Notes under the pieces: model-generated | What the model saw: the letters and a program-made list of their open reading frames with translations, nothing else | What the model was told of the DNA's origin: nothing | Database searches by the model: none | Translations under genes and position numbers: made by a program | Shown here: piece by piece, positions 3,529 through 62,123 of the stretch | How positions within the stretch are numbered: position 1 is the stretch's first letter | Layout of the letters: every line of letters begins with the position of its first letter | Assembly (NCBI GenBank): GCA_945861145.1 | Contig: CAMATL010000004.1 | Coordinates: 8,264 to 72,263 of the forward strand | Source of the DNA: a candidate division TM6 bacterium GW2011_GWF2_37_49 | GTDB lineage: Bacteria; Babelota; Babeliae; Babelales; RVW-14 | Length of the DNA: 64,000 bases | Reading direction: 5' to 3'

Positions 3529-4149
3529 TTAGTATTCACCCTTGCAAATCCAAACCTTAATGCCAATGATGCCATAAATCGTCTTAGCTTCCGCTAAGGC
3601 GTATTGGACATTCGCACGGATGGTATGCAAAGGAATAGACCCAAGTCGCAACCATTCGGAACGAGCAATTTCAGCTCCACCGAGTCGACCCGAGACACAG
3701 ATTTTAATACCTTTAGCGCCACTTTTCAAGGCCGCAAAACCAGCTTTCTTCATTAACTTTTTAACGCTTACACGTTTTTCAAGTTGTTCAGCAATTCCTT
3801 CAGCAACAAGCTGTGAATTTAGTTCAGGAGATTTCTCTTCTTGAACTGAAATATCAATGCTCTTGTTAACTAATTTGTTTAAATCAAACTTAAGCTGATC
3901 AATGCCCTGGCCTTTTTTACCAATAATCAATCCTGGTCGAGACGCGAATAATGTTACGCGAACATTATCCACTGCTTTATCAATAACGACTTTTGATAAA
4001 TCAGTTCTGCTCAACTTATGTGCAAGATATTCTCTAATTCTAAAGTCCTCGATGAGGCTTGCACCATAGGCATTTTTTGAAAACCAATGAGCAGACCAAT
4101 CTTCGTGAACACCGAGCCTAAACCCTAACGGGTGAACTTTTTGTCCCAC
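3529..4149 (-). CDS. rpsC: 30S ribosomal protein S3
   Basis: 206 aa, MGQKVHPLGFRLGVHEDWSAHWF...; KH-domain S3. Confidence 0.97.
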   Translation of the reverse strand: MGQKVHPLGFRLGVHEDWSAHWFSKNAYGASLIEDFRIREYLAHKLSRTDLSKVVIDKAVDNVRVTLFASRPGLIIGKKGQGIDQLKFDLNKLVNKSIDISVQEEKSPELNSQLVAEGIAEQLEKRVSVKKLMKKAGFAALKSGAKGIKICVSGRLGGAEIARSEWLRLGSIPLHTIRANVQYALAEAKTIYGIIGIKVWICKGEY

Positions 4150-4182
4150 CTGACACCTCAGTAAAGAGTATTCTAATTCTTA

Positions 4183-4524
4183 CTAACTTTTCATCTCAAC
4201 AATAACACTAACGTGACACAACCGTTTACGTTGGATAACGCCGCGACCCATTGCACCGGGCTTAAAATAGCGAATAATAGGGCCTTGATCGATGCGAACT
4301 TCTTTAATATTCAGATCATCGATAACAACCGCATCTCCACCCTTATTCTTTGCATTTGCTGCTGCAGACATCATTGTCTTTAGCAACGGTAGAGTTCGCC
4401 TGTTGGCACAAGTCTTGAGCCATGCATACGCCTTACCAACCGTGTTACCACGAATTACATCAGCATACGGTCGTAACTTGTAGGGCGAAAGACGAACATA
4501 TTTACTTATTGCTTGTGCTTGCAT
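4183..4524 (-). CDS. rplV: 50S ribosomal protein L22
   Basis: 113 aa; operon position S19-L22-S3. Confidence 0.93.
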   Translation of the reverse strand: MQAQAISKYVRLSPYKLRPYADVIRGNTVGKAYAWLKTCANRRTLPLLKTMMSAAANAKNKGGDAVVIDDLNIKEVRIDQGPIIRYFKPGAMGRGVIQRKRLCHVSVIVEMKS

Positions 4525-4560
4525 TTCAAGAAATCCTAAACCTTTTGATACTTAACCTAT

Positions 4561-4842
4561 TTATTTTGCTTTTTCAGCCTGACGCTGGCCGCTATGCAAT
4601 CTAAATGTTCTTGTTGGCGCAAATTCACCAAGTGCATGCCCAACCATATTTTCAGTTAAGTACACTGAATTAAACTTCCGCCCGTCATGAACCGCAATTG
4701 TTAACCCTACAAATTCTGGGGTAACAACACTATCCCGTGACCATGTTTTTATTACTTCTTTTTTGCCACCGCTTTGAATTTTTTCAAGCTTGCGCAAAAG
4801 TGAAGAAGCAACGAATGGGCCTTTTTTTATAGATCTTGCCAT
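4561..4842 (-). CDS. rpsS: 30S ribosomal protein S19
   Basis: 93 aa, [21 protein letters not shown]... Confidence 0.96.
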
Positions 4843-4865: not shown

Positions 4866-5681
4866 CTATTTACGACGTTTAATAATAAGGGCACTCTTAC
4901 GCGTACGCGTACGTGCACCTTTACAGCTCTTACCCCATGGAGTTGTTGGGTGAGAACCTGACTTAGAACGACCTTCACCACCACCATGAGGGTGATCAAC
5001 AGGGTTCATTGCCATACCACGCACTGTTGGTCTGATACCAAGATGACGAGTTCTTCCTGCTTTACCAAGAACCATGTTGCGATAATCAGCATTTGATAGA
5101 ACACCAATTGTTGCCCAATTATCAAGCCCCATGTAACGCAACTCACCAGATGGCATTTTCAAAATTGCTTTATCATCTTCTTTTGCTACTAATTGCACAG
5201 AGCAACCAGCACTTCTAGCAATTTTGCCACCCTTACCTGGATACATTTCTACGTTATGAATGAAAAAGCCAACTGGAATACTGCGCATTGGCAGACAGTT
5301 TCCTACTTTTGCTTCAGCTTTTTCACTAGACATAACTGCATCGCCAACTTTGATATTTTCAGGCTTAAGCATGTAAGCTTTTGCACCATTGCTGTAGTAT
5401 ACAAGAGCAATTGGTAAATTTCTATTAGGATCATACTCAATCGCACGTACAACGCCTGGAACATTCTTATGTTTGCGCTGAAAATCGATTATACGGTACA
5501 ATTTTTTTGCACCACCGCCCTTATGACGAGAGGTAATACGCCCGTAAGCATTTCTTCCACCGGTTTTAGGCAACGGAGCAAGTAATGACTTTTCAGGATC
5601 CTTCTTGGTCAGATCTTCATACTTTATAAACTGTTGAAAACGCAACGAAGCGTTTCTTGGTTTTCTACTAACAATAGCCAT
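4866..5681 (-). CDS. rplB: 50S ribosomal protein L2
   Basis: 271 aa, ...MNPVDHPHGGGEGRSKSG... Confidence 0.97.
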   Translation of the reverse strand: MAIVSRKPRNASLRFQQFIKYEDLTKKDPEKSLLAPLPKTGGRNAYGRITSRHKGGGAKKLYRIIDFQRKHKNVPGVVRAIEYDPNRNLPIALVYYSNGAKAYMLKPENIKVGDAVMSSEKAEAKVGNCLPMRSIPVGFFIHNVEMYPGKGGKIARSAGCSVQLVAKEDDKAILKMPSGELRYMGLDNWATIGVLSNADYRNMVLGKAGRTRHLGIRPTVRGMAMNPVDHPHGGGEGRSKSGSHPTTPWGKSCKGARTRTRKSALIIKRRK

Positions 5682-18720: not shown

Positions 18721-18794
18721 TCTCTCTCCACTTCTATCTACCTAATCATATTGCTCAATCCACTTGAAAATACCGACTTTTTTATATCAAGAAT

Positions 18795-18889
18795 GGATCC
18801 CGGCTCGCAGGCCGGGATGACAATGTAGAAGGTCATTTCTCTCCTGTCATCCCGGCCTGCCAGCCGGGATCCACCAAAATCCTGTTTCC
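18795..18889. repeat. palindromic element, full copy (28 bp terminal inverted repeats)
   Basis: ggatcccggctcgcaggccgggatgaca (18795-18822) versus the reverse complement of 18845-18872 matches at 27/28. The right flank accaaaatcctgtttcc is also conserved at 38538-38555 (inverted). Confidence 0.85.
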
Positions 18890-18974
18890 CAATCGTAAAA
18901 AGTATATTGCTCAACAGTGTAAAAGATCTCTGAATCGACGCCTAGACTTTAAAAATCTTTAGCAACATAAGCAC

Positions 18975-38390: not shown

Positions 38391-38537
38391 AGTATTAGCT
38401 CCAAAGATTAAAAACGACTGAGATACCACACGAACAAGCTAAAAAAAAGAACCAATTGAGCGCAAGATTTGAAGAAGTCTTACGTGCAATTGGTTTTTGA
38501 GCGAGAGCAGTGCGTTGGAAGTATACTCTTCACGGTT

Positions 38538-38582
38538 GGAAAACAGGATTTTGGTGGATCGCGGCTCGGAGGCCGGGATGAC
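38538..38582. repeat. solo arm of the palindromic element family
   Basis: ggaaaacaggattttggtggatcgcggctcggaggccgggatgac is the inverted equivalent of 18845-18889. No partner arm follows. Confidence 0.75.
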
Positions 38583-38809
38583 CTACTAGTAAGTCGTTAT
38601 TAAAAAGTACAGGCGGCTTTATTCCTGCCAATCGCTCTGGGGTAAGAATGGGAATGTTTTTTGAGAGTAGTATTTGCTGTCTTTCACAAATCAAACCGTG
38701 TGTTTATAGGCAGGTCCTGTCATGATAATTATGAAAAATTTCTTTTATCGCCCATGGGGAGCGAATAACTGTTTTGGCATGCTAGCAGGTCCTTTGTAGA
38801 TAATTTGTT

Positions 38810-40579: not shown

Positions 40580-40598
40580 TAAGGTTAGAAGATAAAAA

Positions 40599-40640
40599 AG
40601 AGGCGTGGTACAACTTTGTACCACGCCTCTTCTCATATTT
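40599..40640 (+). terminator. stem-loop terminator after the lipoprotein gene
   Basis: agaggcgtggtaca (40599-40612), loop actt, tgtaccacgcctct (40617-40630), then a T-rich tail. Confidence 0.65.
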
Positions 40641-40671: not shown

Positions 40672-40826
40672 GGCGCGATTCGCGTCCGTATCTCTCGATA
40701 CATTTCGCTATGCACAGAAGTGCTGCGCGAAACACTCGAGACGAACTGGCAGGAGAGCCACACAATCCGTTCGCTTCGAGTGTTTTGCTCGTAGAGTAAA
40801 ATGTATCGAGAAGTGCGAACTGGATA
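40672..40826. repeat. long imperfect palindrome (about 150 nt, nested arms)
   Basis: Inner arms 40727-40746 and 40769-40788 pair at 18/20 positions. Outer arms tctcgatacattt (40693-40705) and aaatgtatcgaga (40799-40811) are perfect. Confidence 0.8.
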
Positions 40827-40854: not shown

Positions 40855-41823
40855 TTATTGTTTGCGGCAATAAATGCCCGAAAGTATTGGCGTAATTGGT
40901 ATTATTTTGAAGATGGTCAGTCCAGCTTGCGTGATTAATGTATTAAATTGCGCAAGAGTACGTTCTTTGACGCCAAAGATGCTAAGTAAGAGCAAATCGA
41001 TTGCTGCAAGCATGCTTGGCTCTTCTGCCTTATCCAAGACTCCTTCGATAATTACCAGCTCTTATTCAGGGCCCATAGTTGCGACTACTTGATGTAAAAT
41101 CGCAAGAGCTTGTTCGTCGGTCCAATCGTGTAAGATTCTTTTAAGGATTAGCGTTTCGGCATTAATATTGAGCGGCTCAAAAAAGCTTCCACCAATGCAT
41201 TCTAGTTTTGGGGTCTCTTGAACTAACTCAACTACATTTGGCAAATCAAACAAAATTGCGGTTGATACTGCTGCTTGATTAGTGAGAATCTTTCTCAGTA
41301 GTTGTCCATTGCCGCCGGCAATATCAGCAATTTTACCATTAAAAATTAGCTGCTGTGCGATTGCCGCGTCTTCATTGCTGGATATGCTATTCATCGCTTT
41401 ATCAAACCGCTCACTGAGCACCGGATTTTTTTTGAGAGAAGTAAAATAATCATGTCCATACAACATATCAAAGGCTGGCTTGCCTGTTTTGATTCAGTAG
41501 CTGAGGTTACCAAAGCTGTTCCAGCGCGTTTCATCATCATGGACTAAAAATGGCTTTATGCTCGCTCCATGGTGCTCAAGCAAGTGATATGAATCTGTAG
41601 GTAAAGAATACGTACCATCTTGTTCACGCGTGAAAATATTTTTGAGACACAAAAAATAGAGTAATCGAGCTAAAGTCGCTGCATCTGCGCCCGTAAGCGT
41701 AGCTAATGCAGCAAGGCTTTGCGGCCCATGCTCCAAGTGTTCGGCTAAATTAAATTCAGCTGCTGTGAATAATGCTCGCGATAAAACAATGGTTTCAAGT
41801 AGGTCAAATTGATTAATACTCAT
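40855..41823 (-). pseudogene. class I O-methyltransferase (family 2, COMT/ASMT-like) inactivated by two in-frame stop codons
   Basis: Track ORFs 41494-41823, 41062-41466 and 40855-41037 share one frame. They encode the dimerisation, SAM-binding (DIAGGNGQLL) and C-terminal parts. They are separated only by a TGA at 41494-41496 and a TAA at 41062-41064. Confidence 0.8.
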
Positions 41824-41886
41824 AACTTATGATGCCTTTGTTTTTAAATTAATGTGAATGTGTGAGGTTAGCTTTTTACGTTCAAG
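41804..41886. repeat. direct repeat A, copy 1 (83 bp)
   Basis: 81/83 identical to 43909-43991. Contains the last 18 codons of a copy of the 43932-44357 gene, its stop, and the first 7 codons of the O-methyltransferase gene. Confidence 0.95.
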
Positions 41887-41890
41887 AAGG

Positions 41891-41995
41891 CACTCTTTTT
41901 TTGAAATTCAACTCAATCATACTTAGAATCGTACCTGCCCATTTTTTTTAAAATATTGGTAGCAACAACATTAAATCGATCCCTATCAAGCGCAT
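41891..41995. repeat. direct repeat B, copy 1 (105 bp)
   Basis: 101/105 identical to 43796-43900. Covers the last 27 codons, the stop codon and 22 nt downstream of the 41913-42869 gene. Confidence 0.95.
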
Positions 41996-42869
41996 GCTTT
42001 GCAACATTCTCGGCCTCATTATCACTAATCAACGCTGTTGGCACCATAGGCGGGGTATGCAGCATCAAAAAGTGCTCTACATATTTTTCATTCTGTGGCT
42101 CTAGCGCCATCGCACGCCTCAAGTGAAAGATTCCTGTAGCATCACAACCAGTTAAATTCCTAGAATATGCTTGTGTCACAAACCTGTAGGCAAGATAGTG
42201 CACTTCAGCGTCTTCTTTTTCTTGCATAAGAAACCAAGTAAAAGCGTATGCACACAAATTGCGCTCCTCGCAACCAAGATAAATCAATACCGCGTGCAAC
42301 TCTCGCTCACTTATAACACCAAGCAGTTGTTTCGCTTGGGTAAATTTCCCCGCAAGAATATGTTGCTCGAATTGCTCTCGCTCATTGCGAGAGAGAACAA
42401 TAGGATCTTCTTTACGCTCTACTGCATCTTTGAGCGCTTCCAAGGCAGATAGGTCTTGAGAATCATGCTTAAGAACTTGTTTAGCAATAAGTGCAATTTC
42501 TTCAGCCCTAATTGGGGTCTCGGGGTAACCAAAAAGAGAAAATAATCCACCGGTATTCGCTGGATCATTGTGTCGAGAAATTTCAAATATACTTCTCGCA
42601 TGATAAGCTGCCGTGCTATAGGCTCCTGCGATAAAACTAATTCCTAATTCCGTTACATTTCGAGCAAATCGATGGAAAGTAATATTACTGTTTGTTGATA
42701 ATAGAAATGCTGCAAAGGCATATGAACAAAAATTGTACTGGTCATAAGCCAGAAGAATCAAAATTTCATTTATTTCTTCCTCATTGAAATTACAAAGCTG
42801 TTCCTGTGCTGCAAAAAAATCACCACGGATAATATTTTGAATGAATTGTTTTTTGATAGTTTTTTCCAA
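41913..42869 (-). CDS. hypothetical protein, internally duplicated; candidate immunity partner of the Hint-domain protein
   Basis: 318 aa; starts 4 nt after the upstream gene stop. The two halves are related (EEEINEILILLAYDQYNFCSYAFAAFLL versus ERELHAVLIYLGCEERNLCAYAFTWFLM). No signal peptide. Confidence 0.7.
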   Translation of the reverse strand: MEKTIKKQFIQNIIRGDFFAAQEQLCNFNEEEINEILILLAYDQYNFCSYAFAAFLLSTNSNITFHRFARNVTELGISFIAGAYSTAAYHARSIFEISRHNDPANTGGLFSLFGYPETPIRAEEIALIAKQVLKHDSQDLSALEALKDAVERKEDPIVLSRNEREQFEQHILAGKFTQAKQLLGVISERELHAVLIYLGCEERNLCAYAFTWFLMQEKEDAEVHYLAYRFVTQAYSRNLTGCDATGIFHLRRAMALEPQNEKYVEHFLMLHTPPMVPTALISDNEAENVAKHALDRDRFNVVATNILKKMGRYDSKYD

Positions 42870-42873
42870 TTTC

Positions 42874-43791
42874 TTACCTCACCCAGCCATTACCAACAGT
42901 CCTTATTCCATCGAGCACAATATATGTCACATCTACTATTCGACCACCAAAGCATACCGTTGCCTGGATAACTTCTTTACTATCTTTGTAGGGCCCATGA
43001 GTACCCGCTGTCATAGCCAGAGTAATAATCTTAACAATCTCATCCCAGTTATTGTTTGGATCAGGAACAAGATCTTGCCATTTATGCTTTTCTTGTAATA
43101 TGTGTGGTCGACTTTGTTTTTCATCAAGTCGATACTTAAAGCACTTTTCCAAGTCCCCCACCGCCTGCGGATTGTTAATTGCTATCCCAGCAGTACCTAT
43201 GGCAATAGCTCCAACAGAAAAAGCTGCTTTAGCAAACGCCCATGTCTTCAAAGCAAGCAAACTATCAAATGCAAACGATACGCCTATTCCTATGGCAGGG
43301 GCAAAATTATGTGTAAGAAATTGCGACTTAGTCACAAAGAATGTATGCGGCGCCTCTGTTGAAATGTCGTAAGCAGTGTACATCTCTTCATTTGCATTAC
43401 ACCGCATCACTTCACGGCACGGTACATGGTTGCCCTTGCTATCAAGCAGATGATTTGTAACCGCAAAATCAGATGCTACAACCCACTGCTGCTCTACTGG
43501 ATCAAGAAATTGTTGATCTGGCGCAGCGGGAATAACCTCTTTTCTTGTTGTTGTGAGCACCACCGTGCTATTGCTTAACCGCCTAGAAATGGCCGTCACC
43601 CGTGATTTCACAATTGTTTGCGCCGCTATGTCAACACCAAACAACTCATCGCCGACTCGAAGATCCTCTACACGCTTTTCGCCAGCCACAGTTGCTATCA
43701 AAGTCCCTTGAATCACAGATGGATTAAGCTGACCAGTACTCAGTAAAGCGACTACTGCAAGAACCGTTATCAATCTAGAAAACATCTTCAT
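42874..43791 (-). CDS. secreted Hint (Hedgehog/intein-like) domain protein with unknown C-terminal domain; candidate polymorphic toxin
   Basis: 305 aa; signal peptide MKMFSRLITVLAVVALLST. Hint-like GTLIATVAGEKRVEDLRVGDELF ... EMYTAYDISTEAPHTFFVTKSQFLTHN. Then a hydrophobic Gly/Ala stretch and a roughly 95 aa tail with RPHILQEKHKW. Confidence 0.6.
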   Translation of the reverse strand: MKMFSRLITVLAVVALLSTGQLNPSVIQGTLIATVAGEKRVEDLRVGDELFGVDIAAQTIVKSRVTAISRRLSNSTVVLTTTRKEVIPAAPDQQFLDPVEQQWVVASDFAVTNHLLDSKGNHVPCREVMRCNANEEMYTAYDISTEAPHTFFVTKSQFLTHNFAPAIGIGVSFAFDSLLALKTWAFAKAAFSVGAIAIGTAGIAINNPQAVGDLEKCFKYRLDEKQSRPHILQEKHKWQDLVPDPNNNWDEIVKIITLAMTAGTHGPYKDSKEVIQATVCFGGRIVDVTYIVLDGIRTVGNGWVR

Positions 43792-43795
43792 ACCA

Positions 43796-43900
43796 CACTC
43801 TTTTTTAGAAATTCAACTCAATCATACTTAGAATCGCACCTGCCCATTTTTTTTAAAATATTCGTAGCAACAACATTAAATCGATCCCTATCAAGCTCAT
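43796..43900. repeat. direct repeat B, copy 2 (105 bp)
   Basis: Orphan 3' end of a 41913-42869-like gene, abutting the start of the Hint-domain gene. Confidence 0.95.
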
Positions 43901-43928
43901 GGGTAAGCTCAAATTGATTAATGCTCAT
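43818..43928 (-). pseudogene. chimeric 36-codon remnant ORF (methyltransferase start fused to partner-gene end)
   Basis: Translates to MSINQFELTHELDRDRFNVVATNILKKMGRCDSKYD. Its first 7 codons match the start of the O-methyltransferase gene. Its last 26 codons match the end of the 41913-42869 gene with one substitution. Confidence 0.8.
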
Positions 43929-43991
43929 AACTTATGATGCCTGTGTTTTTAAATTAATGTGAATGTGTGAGGTTAGCTTTTTACGTTCAAG
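43909..43991. repeat. direct repeat A, copy 2 (83 bp)
   Basis: Genuine 3' end of the 43932-44357 gene plus a copy of the methyltransferase start. Confidence 0.95.
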
Positions 43992-44357
43992 CATGATCAT
44001 TGCTATTTTGCCTGGCTTGGCGATGAGATATGTTTTGACTTGAGGCGTTGCTAAATTATCAAAACGCCAGCCGTTACGTTCAGCATCGGCATATAAAAAA
44101 TCTTCAATTTTATGTAGCGCAAGAGAGCCTTGATAGTGGCAATAAGACATTGGCGTATCTGGCTCGTATGCTACGAGGTGAAAACCAAGAGGGACGGGTA
44201 AATCGCTTAAGGTCAGGTATTCTTGCTCGCTGAGCTCTACGATATGAGCGGGGGCACGTGTTAAAGGTTTGACCTCAGGCGCCTGTTGCTTGATGCATGC
44301 GGTGGTAAAGGTGGTAACCAGAAGTATTAAGACGTAGGCAGAGTTTTTCATTACCAT
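43932..44357 (-). CDS. hypothetical lipoprotein
   Basis: 141 aa, lipobox FTTAC; no family recognised. Confidence 0.6.
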   Translation of the reverse strand: MVMKNSAYVLILLVTTFTTACIKQQAPEVKPLTRAPAHIVELSEQEYLTLSDLPVPLGFHLVAYEPDTPMSYCHYQGSLALHKIEDFLYADAERNGWRFDNLATPQVKTYLIAKPGKIAMIMLERKKLTSHIHINLKTQAS

Positions 44358-44379: not shown

Positions 44380-44612
44380 TGCTCATGTTCTTCGAGTCCT
44401 TCAATCCGCTCATACTGACGAGCTGCATAGCAGCGTCTCGAAGTACATGAGCGGTCTCAGGATGAGCAATTTTAAAACGGGTATTTTACCACTTCGCTCG
44501 TCCTGAGGAATGCCGAAGGCCTGTCTCGAAGGAAATGAGCGAAAATAAAATCAACACCGCTCGTGGTGATCCTTCGATACGATTGCTTCGCAATCACTCA
44601 GAATGAGCTGGA
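44380..44612. repeat. cluster of GC-rich palindromic and direct repeat modules
   Basis: tctcaggatgagc (44455-44467) and its near-complement gctcgtcctgagga (44496-44509). Direct repeats gcgtctcgaagtacatgagcg and ctgtctcgaaggaaatgagcg. aatcactcag is shared with 34830-34839. Confidence 0.75.
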
Positions 44613-44647
44613 TCTAATGCGAAAATTGTATTGAACCGTGACTCCAT

Positions 44648-45094: not shown

Positions 45095-45247
45095 TGTGTC
45101 CTCAAGTCGCTTTAAATCTTTTATCGAGTGTTACCGCGTAGATGATCTAATCGAAATCGTTATTTTTCGATTCAATGACCGTTATTATAGCGGCATTCAG
45201 ATACCAAGGCAATATTTTTTTTCAACTACAATCGTTTTCAACTCCGA

Positions 45248-46759
45248 TCATGGTGAGTGTTTTTCGCTATGCGAAAAATGTATCGATCCATACAATTTTT
45301 CATTGAGTCCAAACCAACGGTCAAAGATGACTGCTGCTGCGGATCGGACTGATAAATGGTTGTATGAGGTCATACCATTTACCGGTAAAAGTAGGTAATC
45401 GCATCGTTCAATAATGGATGAAGAAAGGCCATGCGCTGTACCAAAAATAAAGAGTACTGGGCGGTTGTGAGCCCACACCGTTCCTTGACTGTGGTAGTCA
45501 ATTTGCGGAGTTTGAAGTTGTTGCTTTCTCGCGCAGGTGGCTATCATAAGTGGTGCTGCATTTTCGATTTGTGTGATTTTTTCAATAACTTCGTCGATTG
45601 ATGATGCAGTTTGTACGCTATGCATCGCTTGGTAGCGATTTTTATTGTATTCCTTTCCGTCGTGCGATTTCCAGAAATCAAGGAAGGTATTGACCAGTTG
45701 GGCTTGATCCTCAAGCTTGGTTACCAAGAAATACCCCTTGAGGCCAAAGGTTGCGCTTGAACGAGCGATGTCATGAATATCAAGCGAGGCAACTGAACTT
45801 GTGCCGACGGCGCCGCCTTTTAAAACAATTTCGCTATGCATGAGTACGACATAGTGATTAGGGATTATTTTTTGAGCAAGTTTAAGCTCTGCAGGCGTCG
45901 GGTTATGTTCTCTAAACCAATCAAAACGCTTGAGTAGCGTGTTTTTGCATGCTTCTTCGCGTCGCCAGTTGGCTATTGCTAGGTGATTGCCTGACTTAAC
46001 AATGTCGGGCACTGTCTGTTCCCGCCAGGTGATAGTTTGCCCGTACTGCGGGTGATCAAGCAGGGCGCCGCTAAATGATTCATGGTCGACTGATTCTTGG
46101 CTGCCAACTATTCCTGGAATGAGGCGTAAAAAAGCTTCAAGAAATACCTGCGCTGGTAGATCACCACCCATGAGCACGTAGTCACCGATAGAAATTATTT
46201 CGTCAGCAAAGGTTGCTTCTGCACGAGCATCGATGCCTTCGTAGCGTGTTGATACGATGATAAGGTGTGGTTGCTCGGAAGAGGAAGAAGTACTGGATCT
46301 CGGATCGGCGTCCGGGATGACAGAATTTGCAATTGGATGTAGTTGGGTATTATTGAGGGTGTCTTCCTCTAATTCCTTGTCATCCCGGACATTGATCCGG
46401 GATCCATCCTTGACTTGATCGGGAGATATGAGCGGAGTACCCGCAAAAATTTTTGCTTTAAGATTGTGTAAAAGTGGCTGATCGAGGCGTTTACCTTGCG
46501 GCGTGAAAAAAATATTAAACCCTTTGCCCCAGCGTTGCTCAGCTTGTGCGATTCCAGCTTCGATGAGTGCTGGTTTAATAATCATGCCACTGCCTGGGCC
46601 TGCTGTAGCCTCGTCAATGCGTTCTTTGAGTGGGCAGAGCTGCGAAAATTTAATGAGCTGTACCTCTATTAAACGTTGATCAACAGCCCGTTTAACGAGA
46701 CTTGTATTTAAGAAAGGCTCAAAAATTTCTGGAAAAACGGTGATAATTGATATTTTCAT
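45248..46759 (-). CDS. trmD: tRNA (guanine37-N1)-methyltransferase TrmD fused to a C-terminal SPOUT-like domain, carrying an in-frame palindromic-element insertion
   Basis: 503 aa. N-terminal MKISIITVFPEIFEPFL...TRYEGIDARAE...SIGDYVLMGGDLPAQVF is TrmD. The C-terminal 200 aa, ending YNHLSVRSAAAVIFDRW, resembles the TM1570/PF09936-type predicted RNA methyltransferase. Confidence 0.88.
   Translation of the reverse strand: MKISIITVFPEIFEPFLNTSLVKRAVDQRLIEVQLIKFSQLCPLKERIDEATAGPGSGMIIKPALIEAGIAQAEQRWGKGFNIFFTPQGKRLDQPLLHNLKAKIFAGTPLISPDQVKDGSRINVRDDKELEEDTLNNTQLHPIANSVIPDADPRSSTSSSSEQPHLIIVSTRYEGIDARAEATFADEIISIGDYVLMGGDLPAQVFLEAFLRLIPGIVGSQESVDHESFSGALLDHPQYGQTITWREQTVPDIVKSGNHLAIANWRREEACKNTLLKRFDWFREHNPTPAELKLAQKIIPNHYVVLMHSEIVLKGGAVGTSSVASLDIHDIARSSATFGLKGYFLVTKLEDQAQLVNTFLDFWKSHDGKEYNKNRYQAMHSVQTASSIDEVIEKITQIENAAPLMIATCARKQQLQTPQIDYHSQGTVWAHNRPVLFIFGTAHGLSSSIIERCDYLLLPVNGMTSYNHLSVRSAAAVIFDRWFGLNEKLYGSIHFSHSEKHSP
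46295..46405. repeat. 111 bp palindromic element inside the trmD reading frame
   Basis: Arms ggatctcggatcggcgtccgggatgaca (46295-46322) and tgtcatcccggacattgatccgggatcc (46378-46405), same family as 18795-18872. Length is 37 codons, translated as GSRINVRDDKELEEDTLNNTQLHPIANSVIPDADPRS. Confidence 0.85.
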
Positions 46760-47401: not shown

Positions 47402-47570
47402 TTGAAGTTCCCTTTCTTTGTACAATTGGTCACGCGCTTAATCGTGGTTCGATACATTTTTTGTTTCACAAAAAACACTCACCATGAGCAGAGCGAGTTT
47501 ATGTATGTAATTTAGACTTTCACAGAAATAAAAACAGGATTAAGTATACAACGGATTTATTCTTATTCAA

Positions 47571-61919: not shown

Positions 61920-62123
61920 TCAAGTTCGAAGTGCAACACGATTAATCTCCTGAGTAAAAATTTCAGAGGGAGTTTTGTACTTTAGAATCTTTCGATGATT
62001 GTTATTAAGCTTATCCTGAATGACAGCGCACATTCAACCTTGGTTTCTTGATAGAAAGGAATTTTTACATTGCTTGCAAGAAATTTTGGATCCACAAGGT
62101 CGAGATTGTGCGTGCTGCCTTTT
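61920..62123 (-). mobile_element. IS30-family transposase gene remnant, 3' part (one frameshift)
   Basis: The minus strand reads KGSTHNLDLVDPKFLASNVKIPFYQETKVEC, then shifts frame to AVIQDKLNNNHRKILKYKTPSEIFTQEINRVALRT. This continues exactly where 54823-55214 stops. Confidence 0.75.

Follow-up and report, generated by a model that had tools for sequence, protein, structure and literature searches.

How does a small toxin-immunity gene pair reach a new chromosomal site when it encodes no recombinase of its own? The question is raised by a locus in a 64,000-nucleotide (nt) stretch of contig CAMATL010000004.1 from a candidate division TM6 bacterium, called the window here, where a two-gene cassette lies between a putative lipoprotein gene and an O-methyltransferase gene and is enclosed by two nested pairs of direct repeats, A and B. 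The first gene of the cassette encodes a protein with a Hint domain and a toxin domain, and the second, its partner, a candidate immunity protein. We describe the repeats, alleles of the same site with and without the cassette, and the ends of the conserved module, and then weigh the explanations; the one we favor, as the probable one, is that a circular or tandem form of the module gave rise to one insertion, independently of a recombinase, and that the insertion was later moved or removed by homologous recombination.

All parts of the locus are on the minus strand, in the order lipoprotein gene, A2, TACC, B2, Hint gene, partner gene ending in B1, CCTT, A1, and O-methyltransferase gene. Repeat A holds the last 19 codons and the stop codon of the lipoprotein gene, a 4-nt spacer, and 7 methyltransferase codons plus 2 nt. 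In A2 (43906-43991) the lipoprotein-gene 3' end is intact and, past the 4-nt spacer, the first 7 methyltransferase codons are a dead copy; in A1 (41801-41886) the lipoprotein-gene 3' end is the dead copy, followed by the real start of the methyltransferase gene and its upstream sequence. Repeat B comprises the final 84 nt of the partner gene, including the stop codon, and 22 nt past it. B2 (43796-43901) combines a dead copy of these 84 nt with the functional 22-nt start of the Hint-gene leader, and B1 (41891-41996), the functional 84-nt 3' end of the partner gene with a dead copy of the 22-nt leader start. Each joint contains a 4-nt filler, TACC between A2 and B2 at junction 1 (43902-43905) and CCTT between B1 and A1 at junction 2 (41887-41890; CCGT in the GROS21 strains). 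By repeat finding and direct alignment, 83 of 86 positions are identical between the copies of A and 102 of 106 between the copies of B. The original prediction, made from the letters of the window, had the two pairs as 81/83 and 101/105; the pairs are real and nested, as it said, within limits that it drew slightly too narrowly. Its description of A as the lipoprotein-gene 3' end plus seven methyltransferase codons is confirmed by the sequence, and B, which it took for the 3' end of the partner gene, is that over the last 84 nt of the gene, the 22 nt past the stop having gone undescribed.

A and B are the longest two direct repeats of the whole window, and their 28-32-mer cores occur exactly two times each, with zero occurrences expected from shuffled sequences. 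As A is duplicated, the genes on either side of the cassette both retain complete ends, while in the allele without the cassette (see below) they are separated by only 4 nt. At junction 1 the heptamer TGAGCTT is found on either side of the filler and arises from single-nucleotide polymorphisms (SNPs) private to A2 and B2. Across the same junction the methyltransferase start codon and 7 codons are fused in frame to the tail of the partner gene, forming the chimeric open reading frame (ORF) of 36 codons (43818-43928) that had been pointed out earlier and is present in the ORF list; it is most likely a by-product of the junction.

We found no features of known recombination sites in these sequences. 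No hairpin or attC-like folding was predicted for A, B or the joints, A and B folding worse than shuffled sequences (z = +1.1 to +1.6), and no inverted repeats, such as an integron attC site would have, were found at the cassette ends by repeat finding. Composition shows no anomaly over the cassette, and Rfam and tRNA searches gave nothing near the locus. In a scan for promoters and terminators the counts were close to those in shuffled sequences, with clear terminators only after rplS and at 40595-40634.

Exact-protein look-ups led to other contigs from this organism, designated here by L numbers, with identities of 98-99.6%; a 76.6-kb ENA contig (L001) is 99.99% identical to the window. Filled alleles are present in seven assemblies, including the window, from three sample series and independent metagenomes, in which both the samples and the assemblers differ. 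The A2-B2 junction is seen in L002, L030, L031, and L112, and the B1-A1 junction in L009, L010, L030, and L031, so that L030 and L031 each cover the complete A-B-cassette-B-A structure, while L112 reaches from the start of the chimeric ORF inside A2 across the A2-B2 joint into the toxin gene. The chimeric ORF is annotated as a gene in L030 and L112. The joints and the copy-specific SNPs are the same in all filled assemblies, except for one SNP in a filler (CCTT vs CCGT), and the A2 sequence is identical in L002, L030, and L031. In two other assemblies, L003 (1090 nt) and L004 (611 nt), the site is empty: the lipoprotein gene leads through one copy of A into the methyltransferase gene, which is the arrangement that the original prediction proposed to look for in relatives. 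A filled allele is longer than an empty one by exactly 2105 nt, which bears out its reading of the locus as an insertion of about 2.1 kb between two once-adjacent genes with duplication of their junction. Hence, presence or absence of the two-gene module between the lipoprotein and methyltransferase genes is an insertion polymorphism within one groundwater population, and we regard this as practically beyond doubt.

Moreover, two haplotypes, about 6% apart, are found over the first 200-500 nt of the methyltransferase gene. Haplotype h1 is carried by the window and L031 (filled) and by L003 (empty), and haplotype h2, by L009, L010, and L030 (filled) and by L004 (empty). Between L030 and the window, 34 of 535 methyltransferase positions differ, compared to 9 of approximately 1900 positions of the cassette. 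A1 matches the local methyltransferase haplotype in every case, whereas A2 is invariant. The switch between haplotypes starts inside A1, as seen when the window (41300-41840) is compared with L004, L009, L010, and L030, with differences below 1% on the lipoprotein side and in the cassette. This suggests a recombination boundary at repeat A1. As the joints are alike on both haplotypes, the insertion has a single origin; and as each haplotype is found both filled and empty, homologous recombination in the flanks or between the A copies must have moved or removed the cassette.

The module ends were identified by comparison of the cassette with relatives in L005/L006, L007, L008, L011, L022, and L023. 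At all loci homology begins upstream at GTTGAA, approximately 27 nt before the toxin start, and ends at the partner stop codon; among the loci compared there is none above GTTGAA or below the stop. The conserved module is 1905 bp long, the same distance as that from the start of one B copy to the start of the other. Within B, the partner stop TGA is followed directly by GTTGAATTTC..., the start of the leader, with no spacer. Since the partner stop thus abuts the conserved leader start, B corresponds to a head-to-tail junction of the module ends, and, given the 1905-bp module and the B redundancy, the insert amounts to 1.055 module units, starting 84 nt before one such junction and extending 22 nt past the following one. 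This reading of the sequence agrees with the four positions at which the B copies differ. Two of them are in the dead coding part of B2, one being synonymous and the other changing Tyr to Cys at a position where relatives have Tyr, His, Leu or Ile; one is in the dead leader of B1, where a relative supports the B2 base; and one lies beside junction 1. The donor DNA of the insertion was therefore, by the structure of B, probably a head-to-tail form of the module, either circular or tandem. We also considered a tail of the partner gene upstream of the toxin gene as a general feature of such modules and rejected this, as local alignments were significant against shuffled sequences for the window only.

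In relatives the module occupies six other chromosomal places. These sites are unrelated, and neither flanking direct repeats at the other module loci nor A-like sequences near the other copies were found. Among GTDB genomes scanned for the partner, it was found only in the metagenome-assembled genome (MAG) nzgw201, with the module at a different site. The metagenome contigs of the Joint Genome Institute (JGI) contain neither the A core nor relatives of the partner, the viral contigs lack the B core, and no literature on nzgw201, or on Dependentiae with polymorphic toxins, was found. The relatives align over the full length and all keep the toxin domain Ntox35, so that swapping of C-terminal toxin domains is not seen in the family; no orphan modules downstream and no orphan arrays are present at the loci read, and the polymorphism observed is the presence or absence of the whole module. 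In L023 (976-5948) there are two modules on opposite strands, each adjoining an element of the IS30 family of insertion sequences (IS): the complete module lies between an intact IS30-like transposase gene (976-1968) and a degraded copy (3903-4755), the latter taking the place of the 5' two-thirds of the second toxin gene.

How the insertion took place is a more difficult question. Both partners are duplicated at the joints, the chromosome in A and the module in B, the fillers are short and there is no specific site, a pattern to be expected from a single illegitimate event. Moreover, the cassette consists of two genes only and encodes no recombinase or integrase, nor did Pfam identify one within 10 kb on either side. 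We give a one-step illegitimate mechanism about an even chance of being correct. It could take two forms. In replicative template switching, the nascent strand would leave the chromosome after A, copy a module circle for slightly more than one turn and then return 86 nt behind the point of departure. Alternatively, a fragment of a concatemer might have been end-joined into a break with 86-nt staggered ends, which were then filled in. Afterwards, homologous recombination in the flanks, or between the A copies, would have spread or removed the cassette.

Several observations weigh against this account or limit its resolution. A circular or tandem copy of the module is absent from all contigs seen, and the head-to-tail template is deduced from B only. 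Template switching and end joining at a staggered break would both be compatible with the sequence. No model accounts in detail for the two fillers or for the duplicated TGAGCTT at junction 1. Further, the empty allele of haplotype h2 is exactly the product expected of a crossover between A2 and A1 within the first 48 nt, so that each empty allele may be either ancestral or re-excised. Finally, the structure model of the toxin has low confidence (predicted local distance difference test, pLDDT, 40) and was not used for a fold search; for this reason the assignment of the toxin to the BECR fold rests on sequence only.

Among the other explanations, the strongest rival involves two steps. The module would have truncated the lipoprotein gene at its 3' end, or the methyltransferase gene at codon 8, and the intact allele of a sister strain would have repaired the gene later by homology-facilitated illegitimate recombination, that is, with one homologous crossover and one illegitimate joint, producing the second A. 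Such a history agrees with a population that exchanges alleles by homologous recombination, as seen from the same cassette on two flanking haplotypes, with fillers at both joints, which are typical of illegitimate joining, and with the complete genes that the duplication restores on both sides. Still, it requires two rare events with coinciding end points, leaves the B redundancy unexplained, so that a head-to-tail template is needed all the same, and finds no allele with a truncated lipoprotein gene among the contigs; we consider it unlikely. Site-specific integration of a 2105-bp circle with A as the attachment site, by a recombinase acting in trans as for integrase-less mobilizable islands or gene cassettes, would account for the direct repeats flanking the insert, for exactly one A in the empty site, and for a duplication through which the target gene regains its 3' end, as happens with islands that target tRNA genes. 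Yet neither the cassette nor the surrounding 10 kb encodes a recombinase, A has no inverted-repeat core or hairpin, at its six other places the module has no flanking repeats or A-like sequence, and neither 4-nt fillers nor the B redundancy are expected under conservative recombination, which makes this explanation improbable, somewhat more so than the two-step one.

Orphan modules are a known feature of contact-dependent growth inhibition (CDI) and Rhs loci. Since the gene pair is of the polymorphic-toxin type, B2 could in principle be an orphan remnant of an older immunity gene left after cassette replacement, as was claimed in the original prediction and as is known from the remodeling of CDI- and Rhs-type loci (summarized in PMC9424270). 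This part of the claim does not hold. B2 shares 96% identity with the 3' end of the partner gene that is present here and passes into the toxin leader, as the terminal redundancy of a head-to-tail junction does. Its position is on the upstream side of the toxin gene and not on the downstream side. Since no toxin gene is found in the empty allele, nothing was replaced, and all family members have the same toxin domain, Ntox35, with no orphan arrays, only L023 having a second, IS-truncated copy, which is of the whole module. Replacement is accordingly very unlikely. About as unlikely is the mobilization of the module by IS30-family elements as a composite transposon: the position of the complete module in L023 between an intact IS30-like transposase gene and a degraded copy speaks for it, but no such element is found beside the window locus, the sole IS30-like trace in the window is 18 kb away, and the cassette has no terminal inverted repeats and no short target duplication, the 86 nt of A being far beyond the range of IS duplications. 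The trace itself (61956-62075), which may be an IS remnant, is a weak match of 40 residues to the C-terminus of the L023 transposase (47% identity, E 0.003). The least probable explanation, with a practically negligible chance, is an assembly artefact, that is, a collapsed or mis-joined repeat, which the original prediction had itself named as a danger. Short-read metagenome assemblies can mis-join at repeats, and some contigs do end inside A or at a polymorphic T-run (L112); however, an artefact is excluded by the identity of the joints and the constancy of the copy-specific SNPs across seven assemblies, two contigs of which span the entire structure.

The recombinase-independent insertion from a circular or tandem module thus remains the preferred reading. 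One may go further and suppose that the 1905-bp module is a selfish element without its own recombinase, cycling between the chromosome and a circle by host functions only; this is a speculative extension, which we consider rather unlikely. If it were true, the B redundancy and the A duplication would both follow directly from an illegitimate copy-choice insertion that went a little beyond a full turn of the circle, recombination between the B copies would free the unit circle, recombination between the A copies would restore the empty site, and toxin-immunity addiction would favor retention. The nested A-B...B-A structure would then be the scar by which one could diagnose a general route to new sites that has been overlooked for small toxin-immunity pairs.

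The toxin gene (42874-43791, minus strand) encodes 305 residues, comprising a signal-like segment (residues 1-22), a PT-HINT domain (approximately 25-162), a linker (163-208), and Ntox35 (225-304). Both domains exceed the Pfam cut-offs, Ntox35 with 48.3 bits (cut-off 23.6, E 1.6e-12) and PT-HINT with 35.7 bits (cut-off 27.7, E 1.2e-8). The Hint part also matches a solved bacterial intein-like (BIL) domain (PDB 2LWY, E 7e-6). The N-terminus, as read from the sequence, resembles a signal peptide, MKMFSRLITVLAVVALLSTGQ, and Pfam reports no known trafficking domain in the protein. The C-terminal end of the Hint domain is an L-T-H-N motif that is invariant among the aligned relatives, with THN at 160-162. 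By analogy with the Hint family, the THN motif would mediate cleavage by Asn cyclization and thereby free the downstream part. As A-x-D-Q-Q stands where the TxxH block is usual, only C-terminal cleavage would be expected. There is no link to a homing endonuclease: the sole other domain is Ntox35, an RNase fold, and, unlike an intein, the Hint domain does not interrupt a host protein.

The Hint domain is followed by a hydrophobic, Gly/Ala-rich linker of approximately 45 residues and by Ntox35, in which the motif H-x5-KH (H230 and KH236, two histidines six apart) is invariant in the relatives. This agrees with the description of Ntox35 as a predicted RNase of the BECR fold with the hallmark of two N-terminal histidines in H and KH motifs (PMC3482391). 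With an Ntox35 toxin of the S8-PTS, a Firmicute system, it shares 31% identity (E 8e-12), and the Ntox35 protein of Staphylococcus aureus is an antibacterial toxin, which loses its activity on mutation of the predicted catalytic His (bioRxiv 10.1101/2025.07.24.666436). From these features, the product is predicted to be a secreted, self-cleaving Ntox35 RNase.

The partner gene (41913-42869, minus strand; 318 residues) starts with TTG 4 nt after the toxin stop and encodes two TPR-like halves of approximately 155 residues each, which are homologous to each other (29% identical, E 2e-15). No Pfam family was found for it. The AlphaFold model is all-helical and TPR-like (pLDDT 90.5), the sequence profile has weak matches to designed TPR proteins, and a fold search with the model yielded generic TPR matches only, every one with E >0.001. 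A tblastn search of plasmids revealed its relation to the 145-residue WP_012961290.1, whose gene is on plasmid pBpOF4-02 of Alkalihalophilus pseudofirmus; in BLASTP the C-terminal half matches with E 1e-19 and the N-terminal half with E 1e-10. That gene directly follows genes of an S8 peptidase and a 'SAR2788 family putative toxin' with a C-terminal Ntox35 (E 6e-34), an order that is the three-gene layout of the S8-PTS, in which the third gene occupies the immunity slot; immunity families of the TPR type are known from that system (PMC9424270). The wider partner family has 463 clusters in a full HMMER search, with single-domain (approximately 145 residues) and double-domain (approximately 310 residues) members, close double-domain relatives making up just 14 clusters. 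Moreover, the partner gene is directly 3' of the toxin gene at every locus read (L005, L006, L007, L008, L011, L022, and L023). Given the Pfam domains and the immunity-slot homology, the gene pair is very likely an Ntox35 toxin with its immunity protein, in agreement with the earlier proposal of a polymorphic-toxin-type pair, and the partner is most likely a cytoplasmic TPR-like protein predicted to block the RNase active site. We also observed a 165-residue homologue of the partner half-domain in S. aureus (NZ_OX441725.1; L113, 3989-4486) after dhaKLM, with no toxin gene annotated before it, which may be an orphan Ntox35 immunity gene.

After insertion the module has decayed in several ways. 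L030 and L031 have a common 1-nt deletion in the T-run 43303-43306, right after the THN codons, which splits the toxin gene, and L030 has an extra break upstream in the same gene; the partner protein is unchanged in both. In the GROS21 strains the partner carries a nonsense mutation between the halves (Q138*, 42458 C>T), so that the immunity gene of some strains is cut to the second domain. Among more distant relatives, L008 has a toxin gene interrupted by an in-frame stop codon that precedes THN by three codons (5529-5537) and is followed by ATG, and in L007 both module genes are degraded. Such losses fit a module that is conditionally useful or selfish, not essential. The toxin gene is broken at nearly the same place in independent lineages (L030/L031 and L008), with the linker and Ntox35 left as a separate ORF, which could be a coincidence or a tolerated split form.

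The putative lipoprotein gene (43932-44357, minus strand) encodes 141 residues with a lipobox-like TTAC, its last 19 codons and stop being within A2; no Pfam family was found for it. The O-methyltransferase gene (40855-41823, minus strand) is a pseudogene in the window strain, where the reading frame is interrupted by TGA at 41494-41496 and by TAA at 41062-41064; Pfam identifies Dimerisation and Methyltransf_2 domains in its fragments. In the other haplotype (L030 and L009) the TGA is TCA (Ser), and L009 has an additional indel of approximately 39 nt further on in the gene. In nzgw201, the nearest GTDB genome (TrmD 71% identical), rplS is followed by the lipoprotein orthologue (L013, 5900-6328) and then by a convergent gene; the equivalent site there contains neither the cassette nor the methyltransferase gene, and the cassette is on another contig. 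EF-G of the window organism reaches no more than 62% identity to sequences of many phyla, too little to assign it to one of them.

Other neighbors within 10 kb are housekeeping genes or have no Pfam match. In the window trmD (45248-46759, minus strand) is fused to a Methyltrn_RNA_4 domain, the product having 503 residues, and the same fusion, minus an insert of approximately 58 residues, is present in nzgw201; genes with ankyrin repeats and with a Peptidase_C39_2 domain are also nearby. Short, partly palindromic intergenic repeats resembling repetitive extragenic palindromic (REP) sequences or miniature inverted-repeat transposable elements (MITE) are found at 44397-44640, 40684-40820, 45242-45290 / 47445-47493, and 18794-18906 / 38522-38598. 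The first of these sits just upstream of the lipoprotein gene, where L003 lacks approximately 60 nt (44397-44455) compared to the window.

A small toxin-immunity pair without a mobility gene is seldom observed in the course of reaching a new site. Here, one population provides natural alleles with and without the cassette, together with intact joints, a head-to-tail donor pattern and several stages of decay after insertion, and we infer that the nested A-B...B-A scar, together with the empty alleles, is a record of the recombinase-free acquisition of such a pair. Moreover, Ntox35, for which the immunity family was left blank in the 2012 census, can now be paired, by homology and gene order, with a candidate TPR-like immunity domain, and since this pairing is seen in two delivery contexts, with HINT in cis and with an S8 peptidase in trans, it is directly testable.

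With the Firmicute S8-PTS BetaH-Ntox35 loci (PMC9424270; bioRxiv 10.1101/2025.07.24.666436) the pair shares a homologous Ntox35 and a homologous gene in the immunity slot, and the signal-peptide-like start of the toxin may correspond to the Sec signal of those loci. Processing would differ, as the pair studied here is predicted to rely on an in-cis HINT, while the S8-PTS uses a separate S8 peptidase acting on a BetaH domain; in addition, the immunity protein here is a tandem duplication of 318 residues vs 145, and the host is a groundwater bacterium, not a Firmicute. Similarly, like PT-HINT polymorphic toxins (PMC3482391), the toxin has a putative N-terminal export signal, HINT before a C-terminal Ntox35, and an immunity gene directly downstream. 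Unlike them, it has only 305 residues, lacks an RHS, filamentous, LXG or MafB-N delivery region, and has its HINT separated from the toxin domain by a hydrophobic Gly/Ala-rich linker; in the 2012 table, RHS repeats and MafB-N are the only regions given in combination with Ntox35, and the immunity family is blank (PMC3482391). Further, the whole two-gene module moves here, not the toxin tip alone, and there is no orphan array. Thus, the pair shows most features of polymorphic toxins (toxin domain, HINT, adjacent immunity gene), while it is unusually small and the tip swapping that gave them their name is not seen.

The repeats invite comparison with three further types of loci. As with the orphan cdiA-CT/cdiI and rhs-CT/rhsI pairs, a fragment of a toxin-immunity gene lies by an active pair, and recombination generates variation; those orphans, however, are downstream, of other toxin-immunity types, and displaced via a conserved region, whereas the fragment here is upstream, near-identical, and a terminal redundancy. 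Islands bounded by attL and attR likewise have flanking direct repeats that keep the target gene complete, with one copy in the empty site; in contrast to them, the cassette has no integrase, is only 2.1 kb long, has a duplication extending over two gene ends and fillers at the joints, and its other copies have no repeats. Rearrangements of the type attributed to fork stalling and template switching (FoSTeS) or microhomology-mediated break-induced replication (MMBIR) are known mainly from eukaryotic and experimental systems, and a mechanism of this type may have acted here. There, too, a back-jump on the original template duplicates the target, a second template copied for slightly over one turn leaves a terminal redundancy, short fillers occur at the joints, and some of the differences between repeat copies adjoin a joint.

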